Below, piece after piece: positions 15,901 to 24,671 of a stretch of DNA of 25,202 bases (the stretch's first letter is position 1; every line of letters starts with the position of its first letter). A program made the position numbers and the translations under genes. Where the stretch lies: the IMG/VR virus record IMGVR_UViG_3300028738_000069, positions 1 to 25,202 of that record; one strand, written 5' to 3'. The notes under the pieces were generated by a model. The model was not told the DNA's origin and searched no databases. It worked only from the letters and a program-made list of their open reading frames with translations. Source of the DNA: a virus (taxonomy: Duplodnaviria > Caudoviricetes).

Positions 15901-15965
15901 CACGTTTCAAAATTGCGTTAATGTTTGTCTGTTTTGTTAACGGGTTTGGAGATCCTAGCCGAAAT

Positions 15966-15992
15966 GCCCTTGAGAAATCAGGGGCTTTTTTT
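15966..15992 (+). terminator. Rho-independent terminator ending the late operon
   Basis: GCCCTTGA-GAAA-TCAGGGGC followed by T7. Confidence 0.8.
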
Positions 15993-16115
15993 ATCAAAAA
16001 AAATGGCCGCCAACTAGCGTGGCGATAATCGCTAGTCAGTGCTACTCAATGGTAGCCATCTGTACGCACAGGTAAAGCTCTTTCATCGTGTAGGGGCGTG
16101 TTGTCATGGTTTCCT

Positions 16116-16141
16116 CTTGTCGGGTACATCGTTTGTTAGGC
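16116..16141 (-). other. Truncated attC (R''/L'' arm only)
   Basis: Minus strand GCCTAAC-AAACG-ATGTACCC-GACAAG matches the left arms of the other attCs; no L'/R' arm follows. Confidence 0.7.
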
Positions 16142-16408
16142 TATGCCGTTAATTATTGCCCAATCGCAAATTATCTCTGTTGCGTTTTGTTCTATGAATC
16201 CTTCTGGCGTTACATTATAAATAATCGGATTACCGCCATATTGCTTTACTGCTTTTTTTGCGTAGTATTCTGCACTCGCCTTAGACATAGTAAGAAACAC
16301 AACATCCAAATTTTTATTTCTGAATAATTCACGCAAATATCCTGTTTCAATAGATGGCATAATCCTGTCTTTTATCTGTATTGCATCCGTTGTTCCATGA
16401 AACGCCAT
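16136..16408 (-). CDS. Small ADP-ribosyltransferase-fold protein (Arr-like), gene cassette
   Basis: 'FHGT', 'VFLT...A..YA' and 'IYNVTP' follow the Arr/ART strand pattern; GAGG RBS; TAA stop lies inside the R'' site GCCTAAC. Confidence 0.6.
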   Translation of the reverse strand: MAFHGTTDAIQIKDRIMPSIETGYLRELFRNKNLDVVFLTMSKASAEYYAKKAVKQYGGNPIIYNVTPEGFIEQNATEIICDWAIINGIA

Positions 16409-16423
16409 AAGTTCCTCGCATTA

Positions 16424-16506
16424 GCCTAACGCTGAGATAATCCGCAAGCCAGTTGGCAACCCATGTAGGCGTTACTTTGGCTTGTCGGATTCATCGTTTG
16501 TTAGAC
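16424..16506 (-). other. attC site (83 bp)
   Basis: GTCTAAC-AAACG-ATGAATCC-GACAAGCCA...TGGCTTGC-GGATTAT-CTCAGC-GTTAGGC: R''/L''/L'/R' boxes, 5- and 6-nt spacers, two extra (extrahelical) bases. Confidence 0.9.
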
Positions 16507-16511
16507 GGCTT

Positions 16512-17080
16512 TTATTTTCCTGAAAGTGTTTTGAATGCAAGTGCAGCCACGCTTGGAACTTGTCCATTTCCAACTCTTGCGAGCCGCTCCACATTTCCGG
16601 CCAATTCATCATCCACTCTGCAAAGGTAGGGTGGCAAGCTATCTTCTTCTTTATTCTTCCATTCATTTCTCTCCCTGCAAAATTCTTCCACAGACCGATC
16701 AAACGATGTGAAAGACGGCTGGTGTCTTTCCAAGTCTCGCTGGATCTTAGTGGCCCCACTTCGTGAATGATCCTTGCCATTTCTGCCCACAATCCGCTTC
16801 TAGTTCCCTGTTGGATTCCTCTTCTGAATCCTGCGGGGCTGATGTCCTGGCATGGGAACCCTCCACAAACAATGTCTGCAATTCCTTTCCATGGCTTCCC
16901 GTCAAATGTGCAGACATCATCCCAGATTGGGAACCATGGCAAAGCTCCTTCTCGTTGCCTTTGAATGAGTTTGTCTCTAGCATCTTTTTCAAATTCAACT
17001 GCGCAAACTGGCCTATGTCCGAGAAGTAAGCCGCCGAGGATTCCTCCCCCCGATCCTGCAAATAAGTGTAGCTCATTCAT
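16512..17080 (-). pseudogene. C5-cytosine DNA methyltransferase with internal deletion and frameshift, gene cassette
   Basis: Motif I (LFAGSGG) and motif IV (GGFPCQD) are in the 17080 frame; motif X (RVGNGQVP) is in the 16512..16790 frame; motifs VI-VIII (ENV, RxR) are absent after 'IIHEVGP' (~16750). Confidence 0.8.
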
Positions 17081-17103
17081 TTTATTCCTGTATTGATTTG
17101 TCC

Positions 17104-17146
17104 GTCTAACACCCTAGTGACCCCTGTTTTTCACATCCCGTTATCC
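17104..17146 (-). other. attI-like site heading array 1
   Basis: Non-palindromic 36 bp plus GTTAGAC core; 36/43 identical to 22126-22168. Confidence 0.65.
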
Positions 17147-17268
17147 TGAATTTCGTCACCGTGAAATTCATTCCGTGATTCCTTTCGACTTTAGCCATTC
17201 TTTACGTTCCGAAATTCCTTCTGTTACCACTTCGGGCATTTCTCGCTCATACACTCACCTCGTTTTGT

Positions 17269-17496
17269 TTATTGTTTGATCTTGCCTATCCAGTATTGCT
17301 TTACCCTCTTCCCATTCGCCAGTTTAACCCACTCCCAGCGCACTTCCAGATTAGTGCCTATCAGTAGCTCCCGAATGTCGCTTATTCGCCTTGTGAAGCC
17401 TCCTAGCACCCCGTACAGCTTGAAAGCGTCAAGGTTAGTCAGGTACTGCGTTTCCATGTGAAGGATCATCTTATCGACTTGAGTTTTGACCATCAC
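17269..17496 (-). CDS. Small winged-helix/HTH protein
   Basis: 'LTNLDAFKLYGV...RRISDIR...KRVKQY' pattern common in phage HTH proteins. Confidence 0.6.
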   Translation of the reverse strand: MMVKTQVDKMILHMETQYLTNLDAFKLYGVLGGFTRRISDIRELLIGTNLEVRWEWVKLANGKRVKQYWIGKIKQ

Positions 17497-17699
17497 ATAA
17501 CCGCCTTATAGATTGTGAACCATACCTGTGCAATCCCATCAAACACCCGATTCCAGCCCAGAGTCAGCGTCTCAAGGCCGTAATAAAACGATCCGATGAT
17601 TGAGCCGATAGCGAGGAATCCGATGATTAGCATCAGCACCGCATCGAGTAGGATATAGTGCTTTCCGTGTGGTTGTTTGTAGTCGTTTTCAAATGTCAT
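17493..17699 (-). CDS. Small membrane protein
   Basis: Long hydrophobic segment; ATGA coupling on both sides. Confidence 0.55.
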   Translation of the reverse strand: MTFENDYKQPHGKHYILLDAVLMLIIGFLAIGSIIGSFYYGLETLTLGWNRVFDGIAQVWFTIYKAVM

Positions 17700-18583
17700 T
17701 TATTCACCCTGACGTTGATAAATGAAACAACCTTCCCTAGCAATCCTCTTACCTCAATAGCGGTTGAATTTGCTTCTAGGGTCAAAAGGGATGGAAATTG
17801 AATTGAACCAATCAATCGAGCCAATTCAAGCAACTTTTCATTATCTGGTGCAGCCTCAAATTTCTTGCGCTCATTTTCTTTTGCAATTGCTTGTTTTGCC
17901 TCAGATTCATCCTTTTCCTTTTGCTTTCGTAGTTCTTGTGCGGCCTTTGCTTGTTCTTCTGCAAGTTGCTTATTAAGTACATCCTTTTGCTTTTGAAGTT
18001 CTGCGTTTTCTAAACGAATGCGATCGTTTTCAATTCGTTCCGCTTCTTTCTTTTCTTCCTCTTGTTTTACTTCTAGTTCTTGCTTTTCTTTCTGAGAATT
18101 AGCAATTGAAATAATTCGTTCAAATTCAAAATCTGCCATCTTTCCAAGATCACCGAATGAAGGTAGAAAAACCTGATAAGAATCTAATACGGCTTGCCGT
18201 TCTGCTCGTAGCGCATCTTGGCGTTTCTTTTCCTGATTCTCTGCAAACTTTTCCTGTGTCTCTAGGTATTCCTCAATAGGAGAAATAACCGACTCAATAA
18301 GATTGTATGCGCCTTGCACGGCCTTGCCATATCGCAATGAATCCTCTTTCAATTCCTTTCGAGTCTTATCTGCATCAATGCGAATTTGGCGCATGATAAG
18401 TCTAGATTCTCTCGCAAGTTTCATTTCTGTTAACTGGGTCGCATCAGTAACAATAATTGATTTCGCTTTGTCCGCTAATTCAATTGCCCTTTCGATAAAC
18501 GGGGAAAATTTTTCCATCAACATAGATTCGGTCTGTTGCTCTACGTTTTGCTTCTTGATTTCGATAAACATTAATTCGTTCAT
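17696..18583 (-). CDS. Coiled-coil phage protein (DUF1351/Gam-like position)
   Basis: 'RIDADKTRKELKEDSLRYGKAVQ' and an E/K-rich coiled coil; in the recombination module. Confidence 0.55.
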   Translation of the reverse strand: MNELMFIEIKKQNVEQQTESMLMEKFSPFIERAIELADKAKSIIVTDATQLTEMKLARESRLIMRQIRIDADKTRKELKEDSLRYGKAVQGAYNLIESVISPIEEYLETQEKFAENQEKKRQDALRAERQAVLDSYQVFLPSFGDLGKMADFEFERIISIANSQKEKQELEVKQEEEKKEAERIENDRIRLENAELQKQKDVLNKQLAEEQAKAAQELRKQKEKDESEAKQAIAKENERKKFEAAPDNEKLLELARLIGSIQFPSLLTLEANSTAIEVRGLLGKVVSFINVRVNK

Positions 18584-18604
18584 TTTTATTCCTTTGTTTC
18601 TTGT

Positions 18605-18868
18605 TTAGAATGGAAGATCGTCGCTTGTATTTTTCTGTTGCGCCTGTTGCGCCTGTTGCGCTTGCGCCTGTGGCTTCCATGTATCCACACTCACGCTATG
18701 GGTGTTCCCCTTCTGGTCAATCTCCCTCAGAGTCCCAACATTCAGCGTTGCATACCGCTTTCCTTTGAATTCGCTTGTGTGCTCTTGTGGGATGTCATCA
18801 AGGCAGATGCGTAACCTCATACCGTACTTTGATTCTTTTCCTTTTCCGCAATAAATCACATTAGCCAT
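18605..18868 (-). CDS. SSB-like protein
   Basis: Short beta-rich domain, Q/A linker and acidic C-terminal 'DDLPF'; next to the SSAP. Confidence 0.6.
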   Translation of the reverse strand: MANVIYCGKGKESKYGMRLRICLDDIPQEHTSEFKGKRYATLNVGTLREIDQKGNTHSVSVDTWKPQAQAQQAQQAQQKNTSDDLPF

Positions 18869-19565
18869 TAGATACCCCGAACTCTTTAAGGTGATTATAT
18901 ACGTCTCTCATGTGAGACTCCGGTACGTCGTTGCATGACTCAAATCCGATTTCGCCAAGCCTTGCAATCAGTACGCTAGGCGATAGCTTCAACTTGGCTA
19001 CAGTTTCGAGGAATGCCTTTTTCTTTTCGCTAGCGAGTGGCTTTTTAAGCTCTTGCAATCGTTGGTTATCAGCGTCAATTTGTGCAAGCTTCGCATCCTG
19101 CTCTGGAGTTGACATTTCGACGGTGTACTTTGATCCATCCCAAAAGCCTGAATAGATAGCGGCTGCAACACCTAACTGTTTCATGGCAACAGAAAGCGCA
19201 TCTGTTGTTGCCATCTTATAGGCTTCATCGGAAAAATGCAGACCCCTTGTTTCGGCAGATGCAAGTCTTGACCCGCCAATACCTTCGATGGGTTCCGACC
19301 ATTCGCCTTTATACTTTACCCTCATGGCGATCTTAACGAACACGGCTATCTCTTCGCCTACAGTCCTCTCCCATCGGTCAACCTCTTTATACGCCCATCC
19401 AATACCAATAGGGCCAAACACCCTAGTCATGGCAAGGTAACGCCATTGAGGGTTAATATCGGTCATCCCCTTTAATCGGCCTGCACCAATCGTCTTTAGT
19501 GCGCCTGCTGGTGGATATGCTACGCTTTCATAGATTTCCGTATTATTGATTGATTCACTATTCAT
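18861..19565 (-). CDS. Single-strand annealing recombinase (Rad52/Sak-like)
   Basis: 'TDINPQWR...VFGPIGIGW' and 'EAYKMATTDALSVAMKQLGVAAAIY' Rad52-fold motifs. Confidence 0.75.
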   Translation of the reverse strand: MNSESINNTEIYESVAYPPAGALKTIGAGRLKGMTDINPQWRYLAMTRVFGPIGIGWAYKEVDRWERTVGEEIAVFVKIAMRVKYKGEWSEPIEGIGGSRLASAETRGLHFSDEAYKMATTDALSVAMKQLGVAAAIYSGFWDGSKYTVEMSTPEQDAKLAQIDADNQRLQELKKPLASEKKKAFLETVAKLKLSPSVLIARLGEIGFESCNDVPESHMRDVYNHLKEFGVSNG

Positions 19566-19788
19566 TTTCTCCTAGCTCCTCTTTGATAAATTCAAGTGCG
19601 TCATTTCTTGCCGTGCCACCGTTTTCAATCAGGTACATCCTTGCATCCATAAGTACATGTCGCAATCGGTCAATCTCTTTCAGAGCCTTGCACAAAGGGC
19701 ACTCTGAATCCTCAATGACAGCCATGCGCGTATAGGTCACGGTGTCATCGTGGAATTTGTTGTGCAGATCGCAAGTTCGAGTAATCAT
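19558..19788 (-). CDS. Small C/H zinc-binding-like protein
   Basis: C-x2-H ... CPLC. Confidence 0.5.
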   Translation of the reverse strand: MITRTCDLHNKFHDDTVTYTRMAVIEDSECPLCKALKEIDRLRHVLMDARMYLIENGGTARNDALEFIKEELGENE

Positions 19789-19961
19789 CTCCTGAGCTCC
19801 TCTAGTACGTGCTCAACAACTGGGTTCAGTACGGCACTACAGTTTTTGAGATTGATGACCGAATTTGTAATTTTCTTTTCAGCAACGCATAAAGGGCAAT
19901 CCGAAATCTTCTTTTCGTCCCACACAATTGCAGCGTACTTATGTTCGTGACATGACTTCAT
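19785..19961 (-). CDS. Small C/H zinc-binding-like protein (58 aa, not in ORF track)
   Basis: MKSCHEHKYAAIVWDEKKISDCPLCVAEKK...; ATGA overlaps with both neighbours. Confidence 0.6.
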   Translation of the reverse strand: MKSCHEHKYAAIVWDEKKISDCPLCVAEKKITNSVINLKNCSAVLNPVVEHVLEELRR

Positions 19962-20137
19962 TTCTTTACCGCCTTGATTGCTTTGCAGATTACCGTATCG
20001 ACTGTTGGCTTTTCGCTTTCATCGCAAGGGTTCGCAGCTTTCATCTTCTTCGCGATTGCTTTTTGCCGTTCCACTTCTTTTGCAACAAAGTCACGAGTTG
20101 CAAATTTTACCGATATTGTTGTGTAGCTTCGATTCAT
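19958..20137 (-). CDS. Small DNA-binding-like protein (RHH-like)
   Basis: Start at 20137 after AAGGAGA; 'YTTISVK' beta strand followed by helices. Confidence 0.5.
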   Translation of the reverse strand: MNRSYTTISVKFATRDFVAKEVERQKAIAKKMKAANPCDESEKPTVDTVICKAIKAVKK

Positions 20138-20154
20138 GTTTCTCCTTTTTGTGT

Positions 20155-20182
20155 AAGATAATAAATCTAAACGCAATTGCAA
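20155..20182 (-). promoter_or_regulatory. Putative sigma70 promoter
   Basis: TTGCAA-16 bp-TATCTT just upstream of the 20137 RBS. Confidence 0.4.
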
Positions 20183-20199
20183 GACAATATGCAAGAAAT

Positions 20200-20251
20200 A
20201 AATAACGCTGAGATTACCCGCACGTAGTGTCGTGTACATCGGTTGTTAGGC
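20200..20251 (-). other. attC site (52 bp), last in array 2
   Basis: GCCTAAC-AACCG-ATGTACAC-GACAC TAC GTGC-GGGTAAT-CTCAGC-GTTATTT; 49 bp identical to 20443-20491. Confidence 0.85.
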
Positions 20252-20423
20252 GACAGTTAGTTATCTGCATCCATCTATTCGCCTCCATTCTGCAATTCCA
20301 TGATTGTCTAAATGAGTTTCCTGCAAATCCGTTTATAGATTCTGATCCACATTCAAACCTAACTCCATCAGGTTCCATCATTCCGGGTTTGCATTGTTTT
20401 GCTTTGCATTTTGGGCAATCCAT
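20214..20423 (-). CDS. Cys-rich hypothetical protein, gene cassette
   Basis: AAGGA RBS after GTTAGGC; 'CPKC...FECGS...C'; reads into the attC. Confidence 0.55.
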   Translation of the reverse strand: MDCPKCKAKQCKPGMMEPDGVRFECGSESINGFAGNSFRQSWNCRMEANRWMQITNCRLTTDVHDTTCG

Positions 20424-20439
20424 AAAGTTCCTTTTGTTC

Positions 20440-20491
20440 GCCTAACGCTGAGATTACCCGCACGTAGTGTCGTGTACATCGGTTGTTAGGC
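20440..20491 (-). other. attC site (52 bp)
   Basis: GCCTAAC...GTTAGGC with L boxes; near-duplicate of 20200-20251. Confidence 0.9.
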
Positions 20492-21100
20492 TATGCCGTT
20501 AATAAGTCCAATTGCGCTGTTTCGTACTTGATACGCTTTTGCATTGCCGCAAAGTAGTCTTTGTCTAGCTCTGATCCTGTTAGGTCAAAGCCCATTTGAT
20601 GACACGCAATGGCTATGCTACCGCTTCCAAGATGCGTATCTAGTACATTATCTCCTTTCTTTGCGTAGTTGTGTAGTAACCATTTATATAGGGCTACTGG
20701 CTTTTGTGTAGGGTGAAATCTATCTAGTTGCATTGGGTTTATCTTTTTTATTCGTGTACCACCAGAGCGAACCCAAGCAAACTCGCACTCCGCAAAATCA
20801 CGCCCATACATTGTTTCTCCTTTATCCCAAATAGCAAAATACTGATTAGGAGGTAGATTAAAATAATTACCTCCCCAGATTATTTGATTTTTAGATATTC
20901 TGAACAGCTCAATAAAATATGATTCATCTGGTACTGCAGAATCCCATGTTTTTTTTTGTAGGCATTACAGTTTTACGAGATCCCATATTCATTTTATTTA
21001 CATCAATCCCATAAGGTGGGTCAACAATAGCCAGCTCGAAGTGCTTGTCTGGGTATTGAGCCATAAGCTCCATGCAGTCCATGTTTCGTAAATCAAGCAT
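20491..21100 (-). pseudogene. Beta-class N6-adenine/N4-cytosine DNA methyltransferase, +1 frameshift in an A9 run, gene cassette
   Basis: MLDLRNMDCMELM...IVDPPYG (motif IV), then 'HPTQKP' and 'LDTHLGSGS' (motif I). The 610 nt span is 3n+1; A8 instead of A9 at 20949-20957 gives an open 202-aa ORF. Confidence 0.85.
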
Positions 21101-21120
21101 CGTTTTAGTTCCTCGTATTA

Positions 21121-21197
21121 GCCTAACGCCAAAATAACCTGCCGATTTTGCGCGACCTTATGCTAACAAAATCGGTCGGGTTCATTGACTGTTAGGT
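21121..21197 (-). other. attC site (77 bp)
   Basis: ACCTAAC-AGTCA-ATGAACCC-GACCGATTTTG...CAAAATCGGC-AGGTTAT-TTTGGC-GTTAGGC. Confidence 0.9.
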
Positions 21198-21604
21198 CAC
21201 AGCCTAAAATTTACTCTATACATTTCTTGAGCCAATACAGATACTAGAGTTTCAGAATGTTCAATTCCATTCAACTGTAAAACTGCATGACACCATTCAT
21301 GTATTAAAGTTGCTTCCTTTTGTTGGTCTGGCATTTCCTTATCAATAAATATTCTTAGGTCTTTGATGTCACATCGCCCTAAAGATTCGTCGCTTCTCGA
21401 ATTTCTATCTCTGTTTACAACTTCAAAGCATAGTCCACAAATAATTATTTTTTTGTGTGAAAACTCTAATTTCATGGAATCATCTCTAATCAATTCTTTT
21501 GTTGTTAAAAATGCTATTACATTATCAACTTCTCTCGAGCATCCATTATTTTTTGACCACTCTGAAAATTCTCTCGCCAACGCACTTCTTTTGCTAAACA
21601 ACAT
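21197..21604 (-). CDS. HEXXH metallopeptidase-like protein (ImmA/IrrE-like fold), gene cassette
   Basis: 'LGRCD....RIFID....Q..ATLIHEWCHA......E'. Confidence 0.65.
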   Translation of the reverse strand: MLFSKRSALAREFSEWSKNNGCSREVDNVIAFLTTKELIRDDSMKLEFSHKKIIICGLCFEVVNRDRNSRSDESLGRCDIKDLRIFIDKEMPDQQKEATLIHEWCHAVLQLNGIEHSETLVSVLAQEMYRVNFRL

Positions 21605-21605
21605 A

Positions 21606-21815
21606 TTACTCCCTTATGTAGTTCAAAATTGCTTCCATCATCTCAACAAACTCATGCTCATCAAGTTCTAGTTTTTTACGGAAATATGAATCCACAGGTT
21701 TTTTATGTTTAAGGCTTACTAATCCATCTTTGATGGAAATTGAATATTGTGCAGCGGTTGAGTCTGCAAATAGAATTTCTCTTGATGCTATTACGCCTCG
21801 CGTAATTTCTTTCAT
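21606..21815 (-). CDS. Hypothetical protein, first gene of a two-gene cassette
   Basis: GGAG RBS 30 bp after the GTTAGGT core; coupled to the HEXXH gene. Confidence 0.6.
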   Translation of the reverse strand: MKEITRGVIASREILFADSTAAQYSISIKDGLVSLKHKKPVDSYFRKKLELDEHEFVEMMEAILNYIRE

Positions 21816-21846
21816 TTTTATTCTCCGTTAAATGTTCGTTCTGCTG

Positions 21847-21929
21847 ACCTAACTCTGAGATAATCCGCAAGCCAGTTGGTAACCAATGTGGGAATTATTT
21901 TGTCTTGTCGTATTCCTCGCTTGTTAGGC
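21847..21929 (-). other. attC site (83 bp)
   Basis: GCCTAAC...GGATTAT-CTCAGA-GTTAGGT; 70/83 identical to attC 16424-16506. Confidence 0.9.
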
Positions 21930-22091
21930 TATGTTTCCTAGTTTTCTTGCAACCAATTTCTTCTGTTCATGTTCTTGTTTCTCATATTGAGCCATTTCTT
22001 TTTTTACACGGTCATTTACTCGGTTAAAGAATTTATTTGAATACTCTGCGTTTCCAAATTGGGCTAAAATCTCGTAGATACACCCATCCAT
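21924..22091 (-). CDS. 55-aa hypothetical protein, first cassette of array 2 (not in ORF track)
   Basis: MDGCIYEILAQFGNAEYSNKFFNRVNDRVKKEMAQ...KLGNIA; AAGGTGG RBS; TAA stop inside R''. Confidence 0.6.
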   Translation of the reverse strand: MDGCIYEILAQFGNAEYSNKFFNRVNDRVKKEMAQYEKQEHEQKKLVARKLGNIA

Positions 22092-22125
22092 TTTAACCAC
22101 CTTTGTTCTTAGGGCACTCGCATTA

Positions 22126-22168
22126 GCCTAACATCCTAGTGACCCATGTTTTTTGCATCCTCTTATCC
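22126..22168 (-). other. attI-like site heading array 2
   Basis: GGATAAGAGGATGCAAAAAACATGGGTCACTAGGAT-GTTAGGC; homologous to 17104-17146. Confidence 0.65.
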
Positions 22169-22271
22169 GGACTCAACAGGGTAAAAAGTCCAGATAATCG
22201 CCCCACATTTTCCACTTTACCCGCGCATTGCGTTTTATCAATTCAAGATAAAGTGAATGAGTGACTAAATC

Positions 22272-24642: not shown

Positions 24643-24671
24643 TTGCATTGTCTTACATTTGTTGGTATATT
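24643..24671 (+). promoter_or_regulatory. Sigma70 promoter
   Basis: TTGCAT-17 bp-TATATT with extended -10 TG. Confidence 0.65.

Follow-up and report, generated by a model that had tools for sequence, protein, structure and literature searches.

Clusters of integron cassettes in phages that encode no integrase have so far been read as captured or relic fragments, and integrons themselves have recently been tied to anti-phage defence. The closest described elements are the phage-borne attC-site clusters that have no integron integrase (CALINs) of Qi et al. (2023, PMC9892861), a paper whose accessible sections already report recombinable phage attC sites and methyltransferase cargo and suggest, for the CALINs of virulent phages, off-target or illegitimate recombination as the route of uptake. 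CALIN cassettes can be handled by integrases acting in trans, as described in the cited part of PMC9668308. For attI sites in phage CALINs, the only literature found was PMC9892861, in a search that left most of the subscription literature outside its coverage and that is no proof of absence. Here, we describe two copies of an attI-like site, each at the head of a cassette array, in a 25,202-nucleotide (nt) stretch of phage DNA (record IMGVR_UViG_3300028738_000069, Caudoviricetes; referred to as the window). We consider it likely that both sites are attI-type docks of a phage without an integrase of its own, and that an integron integrase of the host loads cassettes into them in trans during infection.

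The window, a phage contig, carries P22-like genes for the portal and the coat. A circle of ~30 kb closes by overlap of G005, the window and L003 (labels in G denote phage records, in L matching loci, and in X metagenome runs), and the window covers most of this ~30-kb P22-like phage. A search for tyrosine recombinases (PF00589) gave no match in G000−G009, including G000 and G005, while the control was positive in 14 of 14 genomes. The array behind site 1 carries four full attC sites, and that behind site 2 one full and one truncated attC. Both arrays are CALINs, i.e., they consist of at least two serial attC sites without an intI gene.

The two sites (Table 1) are identical at 36 of 43 positions when compared in register, as the original prediction had claimed, and at 30 of 36 upstream of the core. 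Beyond them identity is at chance level, with 11/40 over the 40 bases further upstream and 9/40 over the 40 bases downstream. A GTTRRRY core closes each site and opens the first cassette (GTTAGGC at site 1 and GTTAGAC at site 2), followed by four cassettes below 22126 and two below 17104. The predicted end of identity at this core holds with one refinement: because the core bases after the G belong to the cassette, the platform proper is composed of the ~36−39 bases upstream of the crossover. The short length of the motif would favor a chance resemblance between two random points of insertion, but this reading is refuted by the count of the motif (two copies in the window, 0 in 100 shuffles), by a binomial expectation of ~1e-6 for such identity over all position pairs, and by the homologs found at cassette heads in another phage (see below).

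The sites do not fold better than shuffled sequences (z −0.10 and −0.80), while four attC sites folded alongside them gave z values of −3.8, −3.3, −1.2 and −1.6, in agreement with the earlier description of a non-palindromic element unlike attC. A reading of the motif as a degenerate attC was rejected, given that it forms no hairpin and does not match the attC arms. At the position of the L-box, −12 to −6, the sequence is GGTCACT or GGTAACT and conserved, with a TAAC-like part one base further out, as judged by eye, and GGAT is repeated two to three times in each site copy. A candidate for the promoter Pc upstream of site 1 is a single 9/12 match at 22241−22214, in a region at chance level. 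Directly upstream of each site lies an unrelated short inverted repeat (22163−22197 and 17146−17167), and stretches extended over these repeats gave z values of −0.44 and −2.77.

Once a cassette has gone through a circular stage, the seven bases at its start pair with its own R'' box. In the present arrays, 20 of 24 rows from eight arrays have first seven cassette bases that are the exact reverse complement of the R'' box of the same cassette (21 of 24 once a false internal GTT start in one row is corrected), and the own start fits the R'' box better than does the start of the next cassette in 11 of 12 informative rows, the remaining one being a tie. Among the six first cassettes at the motif that have a visible R'' box, five fit at 7/7 bases and one at 6/7. 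Cassette 2.1 carries the rare pair GTTAGAC/GTCTAAC, and its core letters therefore arrived with the cassette. Judged from these pairings, the cores appear to mark real crossovers.

All 20 full attC sites listed for these phages, found with a home-made scanner rather than IntegronFinder, which some short or damaged sites escaped, form an R''/L''/L'/R' hairpin with an extra base on the top-strand AAC arm, and their genes have the normal orientation. The first extrahelical base is best placed at position 15, which fits all 20 sites (tied with the neighbouring position in 5), and this base is a top-strand G, i.e., a C on the bottom strand, in 19 of them. The arrangement differs from that of the usual attC, where the first extrahelical base is at position 16 and is usually a G on the bottom strand, according to the part of PMC5027507 cited here; a change of G16 to C carries a cost of only 2.7-fold in the data cited from PMC2727003. 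The shifted attC class suggests a particular host integrase.

Related phages with different first cassettes, named as a check in the original prediction, were found for both sites. At site 1, the loci L100/L119 carry two wholly different cassettes in place of the four in the window, with an upstream flank that is 98.3% identical to that of the window over 420 nt. The two alleles diverge exactly at the head core and rejoin at the far GTT junction with the backbone. The alternative first cassette was seen in L100/L119, and runs X1, X2 and X3 show it too, by a loose end at position 22126; a different last attC on the same backbone flank was seen in L119, X1 and X7, and in X1 and X7 this alternative end lies at 20208. 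These comparisons cover assembled contigs only, from eight runs; the runs that hold the phage are labelled peat metagenome. In X2, the contig depths of the two site-1 alleles are 23.2 and 15.3 vs 40.7 upstream, and array depth comes to 38 vs 77 (X1) and 48 vs 110 (X3); X4 holds the window's allele only. Both site-1 alleles co-occur at similar depth. At site 2, L110 has a different first cassette behind a flank that is 98% identical. On the strength of these alignments, the sites appear to behave as reloadable entry points. One further contig of X3, at a depth of 26.9, skips positions 15953−17255, i.e., all of array 2 and its site; this joint was not counted, as the letters between are unread and the short side spans 30 bases.

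The same differences would also arise if the sites were former attI sites, now relics, and the arrays changed by homologous recombination of the phage between repeated leaders and attC arms. Leaders and attC arms common to several cassettes, the predicted Rad52/Sak-like protein between the arrays, the damaged appearance of one cargo gene and the join in L110 (see below) are in line with this explanation. However, two unrelated attC sites abut one and the same flank at the far junction of array 1, where only a few bases near the GTT are common to them, the two site-1 alleles do not differ in their platform, and the flanks of the alternative alleles are ~98% identical, which argues that the array changes are recent. 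We regard the relic explanation as improbable.

Homologs of the docks are also found outside this phage. Three copies in G003 and G004, which cover 9% and 14% of a genome by CheckV completeness, share 25−29 of 36 bases with those of the window, and each is then followed by a different cassette start; behind one copy in G004 the contig ends ~300 nt later, with no visible attC. The genes of G003 include ones for SbcC-like, exonuclease and RuvC-like proteins, and a tblastx comparison of three stretches of G003/G004 with the window gave no match. G003 and G004 are probably parts of one genome, that of a large phage unrelated to the phage of the window. Over the five full copies, 27 of 39 columns are invariant, i.e., the sites have a conserved flank and are more than a GWT. 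Seven different first cassettes are found at these five copies, whose ends all lie at an identical distance from the crossover. Because the proteins of the first cassettes in L119 and G003 have 46% identity over 67 amino acids (aa) in arrays that share attC families, the cassette pools of the two phage types appear to overlap. In addition, 42 of 52 bases of site 1 are matched by a 222-nt contig from X20, which has a new upstream flank and new downstream sequence; this contig is too short to be assigned to phage or host and was counted apart.

In three collection scans, true copies of the motif were found at 6 of 16, 6 of 46 and 9 of 41 loci, all at cassette starts, whereas the other loci agreed with nothing beyond the letters specified in the pattern. 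In the scan with the upstream half, six of the 46 viral loci match the unspecified middle at 21−23 of 23 bases, and all are the sites described here; the remaining 40 agree with it at no more than 10 of 23 and lack a downstream attC. The nine metagenome loci with the full motif (of 41) all belong to this phage, two of them being identical to the window, and the other 32, core-only matches with no attC behind, were rejected. A motif unlinked to cassettes, which would have spoken against the original prediction, was looked for among the scanned loci and not found. The recurrence of the motif in an unrelated phage, together with the other cassettes at both sites in near-identical genotypes, supports the earlier claim that the sites are loadable platforms rather than relic attC clusters.

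Alternatively, the motif could be a shared promoter or operator, with an integrase that inserts at any GWT, as at attG sites, and selection that keeps the expressed insertions. Insertion at attG needs a GWT only (in the cited part of bioRxiv 10.1101/2022.09.11.507474), other phages have taken up the same cassette class without the motif, and in G003/G004 the motif forms the last part of a repeated unit of ~160 nt that contains TTATCCGGA-type repeats and −10-like hexamers. A promoter would not account well for five full copies that end at one base relative to the crossover ahead of seven different first cassettes, or for the absence of a cassette-free copy from the 16, 46 and 41 scanned loci; moreover, no sigma-70-like match lies inside either window copy, and the 14 such matches in the region are at chance level (14.8 expected). 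This explanation is thus also an unlikely one. The ~160-nt unit precedes each copy in the large phage (L093 5265−5424, L091 7405−7559 and L092 1879−2040), and only its last ~39 bases are common to the window.

Several observations weigh against docks of the attI type. Among seven phage lineages that have the attC class and a visible head, five are without the motif (G001 with two sites, G002, G006, G007 and G009), and by eye some of these heads are like simple L-box sites and others like none. The L-box position, GGTCACT/GGTAACT, is unlike the CCCTAAA of attI1 given in the part of PMC12901181 cited here. The L110 cassette and cassette 2.2 have the same truncated attC at their ends, and since a truncated attC is not easily made by an integrase, this join points to a short-homology crossover. 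Neither an empty site nor an excised circle was seen in the assembled contigs, which drop rare variants. The host has also remained out of sight: two attI-pattern scans of genome contigs gave 0 and 0 matches, and neither a host attI nor an intI gene, the neighbour named as a check in the original prediction, was found, in a search by exact patterns that miss diverged or absent hosts; attC-pattern scans of genome contigs gave 5 and 4 isolated matches and no arrays, and a host copy was not found among the 41 metagenome loci. Because of the truncated-attC join in L110 and the predicted Rad52/Sak-like protein, integrase action is probably not the sole force on the arrays.

With no adjacent intI, the sites are not part of a complete integron; they likely work like attI, with a host enzyme as the probable cognate integrase. 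In such a scheme, the host integrase would act in trans and insert cassettes at the GTT of the site by attI × attC recombination, while attC × attC excision by the same enzyme would change the last cassette; new heads and new last cassettes would therefore appear at a fixed flank. Array 2 would probably be read through from the leftward early operon, and the methyltransferase cargo would probably protect against host restriction. The direction and order of the loading events are inferred. The motif could be a mimic or a captured copy of a host attI, as the original prediction proposed, and its most likely source is the attI of the host, because unrelated phages share it and an integrase is specific for the attI cognate to it (PMC2095811, in the part cited). 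A broader scenario, which we put forward tentatively and hold to be slightly less than evenly probable, is that unrelated lytic phages of one host lineage each took up and duplicated the host attI and kept it under selection as a dock, and that during infection the host integrase both inserts and reshuffles, within phage genomes, a shared, phage-adapted pool of methyltransferases and small genes with the shifted attC class, i.e., that the integron is split between a host enzyme and a phage platform.

Table 1. Sites, cassettes and neighbouring features of the window
Feature	Positions	Strand	Details
attI-like site 1	22126..22168	-	36 conserved bases 22133-22168 + core; crossover inferred between 22132 and 22131
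attI-like site 2	17104..17146	-	36 conserved bases 17111-17146 + core; crossover inferred between 17110 and 17109
Cassette 1.1	21853..22131	-	58-aa open reading frame (ORF) 21924-22100, no Pfam/PHROG match; attC 21847-21929 (83 nt)
Cassette 1.2	21127..21852	-	ORFs 21606-21815 and 21197-21604; attC 21121-21197 (77 nt)
Cassette 1.3	20446..21126	-	N6/N4 DNA methyltransferase 20491-21100; attC 20440-20491 (52 nt)
Cassette 1.4	20206..20445	-	small ORF 20214-20423; attC 20200-20251
Cassette 2.1	16430..17109	-	C5 cytosine methyltransferase gene 16472-17080; attC 16424-16506 (83 nt)
Cassette 2.2	16119..16429	-	90-aa ORF 16136-16408; truncated attC, left arm only (16119-16141)
Two opposed terminator-like hairpins	15966..16025	.	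close array 2 against convergent lysis-region genes
Predicted Rad52/Sak-like annealing protein	18861..19565	-	between arrays; feature score 0.96, TM 0.58-0.63, lead-level

In array 1, the second ORF of cassette 1.2 has weak metallopeptidase-like matches below the Pfam cut-off and belongs to phrog_1233. The methyltransferase of cassette 1.3 is split by a homopolymer difference at 20949, which is likely an assembly error, since it is seen in the window only and is absent from L002, X1, X3 and X7. The attC core of cassette 1.4, GTTATTT, is the junction with the phage backbone. In array 2, the C5 methyltransferase gene does not reach the length of a homolog and seems to be out of frame; over 80 nt, the attC of the same cassette shares 98.75% identity with an attC that follows a different gene in phage G001. 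The ORF of cassette 2.2 matches PF12120 (Arr-like) at the Pfam cut-off and belongs to phrog_2110. The hairpins that follow are consensus matches only, and their total count is not above that in shuffles.

A last attC cut just after its left arm recurs in four phages (the window, L110 466−490, L194, L203 and ends in G001) and often runs straight into a ribosome-binding site; this recurrent cut is possibly a regular route to fixing a terminal cassette. A few leader sequences and a few attC arms recur around unrelated ORFs in the window, L110, L119 and G001−G004, and the recurring leaders bear on how cassettes are made. In G001, the first cassette-like unit (L009 5434−5880) contains two ORFs and a promoter of phage type, whose region is 85% matched to window positions 24662−24722 and recurs at the second site of G001, hinting that phage DNA is able to become cassette-bounded. 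Next to array 1, the replication module has been exchanged whole between sibling genotypes (window 22515−24008 vs L119 2510−4709).

The phage is abundant in several runs. Among annotated phages, the methyltransferase was the sole match within the best 20 of 82, and coat-protein matches were at 24−30%. In the search for the host, the coat alignment gave no relatives among 60 candidates. Of 14 relatives of the peptidase gene, the sole close locus is this phage, and no convincing arrays were found among them; the search against Rfam gave 0 matches.

What makes the locus informative is that two fixed positions hold different arrays in co-occurring, ~98% identical strains, and that the entry motif is common to a very different phage. 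If a host integrase indeed acts in trans, integrons would also be a tool by which phages gain and swap genes, e.g., anti-restriction methyltransferases. The defined 36-base platform, with its natural variants, becomes directly testable once the host integrase is found.

The arrays are similar to the phage CALINs of PMC9892861 in that attC-bounded cassettes, among them orphan DNA methyltransferases, are carried without an integrase. One phage of that study, MW202573, shares the P22-like order of genes and has a coat protein that is a distant match, yet unlike the phage of the window it lacks the present motif. For the virulent-phage CALINs, the accessible sections of the paper do not report an attI or strain-level reloading; attI-like sites and such reloading are seen here. 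The same sections describe the Shewanella prophage M16-3, which has two attI copies, one heading a CALIN, that are nearly identical to a host-type attI; in M16-3, however, which is a cryptic prophage, intI is intact and lies in cis, whereas the present phage has no recombinase and shows alternative arrays at both sites. With attI1 of class 1 integrons, as described in the cited parts of PMC12901181 and PMC2095811, the sites share a non-palindromic sequence that ends in GTTRRRY, a crossover after the G, and cassettes downstream in normal orientation; in contrast to attI1, there is no adjacent intI, the L-box sequence is another one, and equivalents of DR1/DR2 as well as Pc are candidates only. 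The sites also resemble attG (Loot et al., bioRxiv 10.1101/2022.09.11.507474, in the part cited), where cassettes are found at a GWT away from any intI, but attG has no conserved upstream sequence, whereas here the invariant columns extend across two phage types and the site is reused. What is new in this locus, compared with these systems, is that two fixed sites are reloaded at the level of strains and that different phage types have a dock in common.

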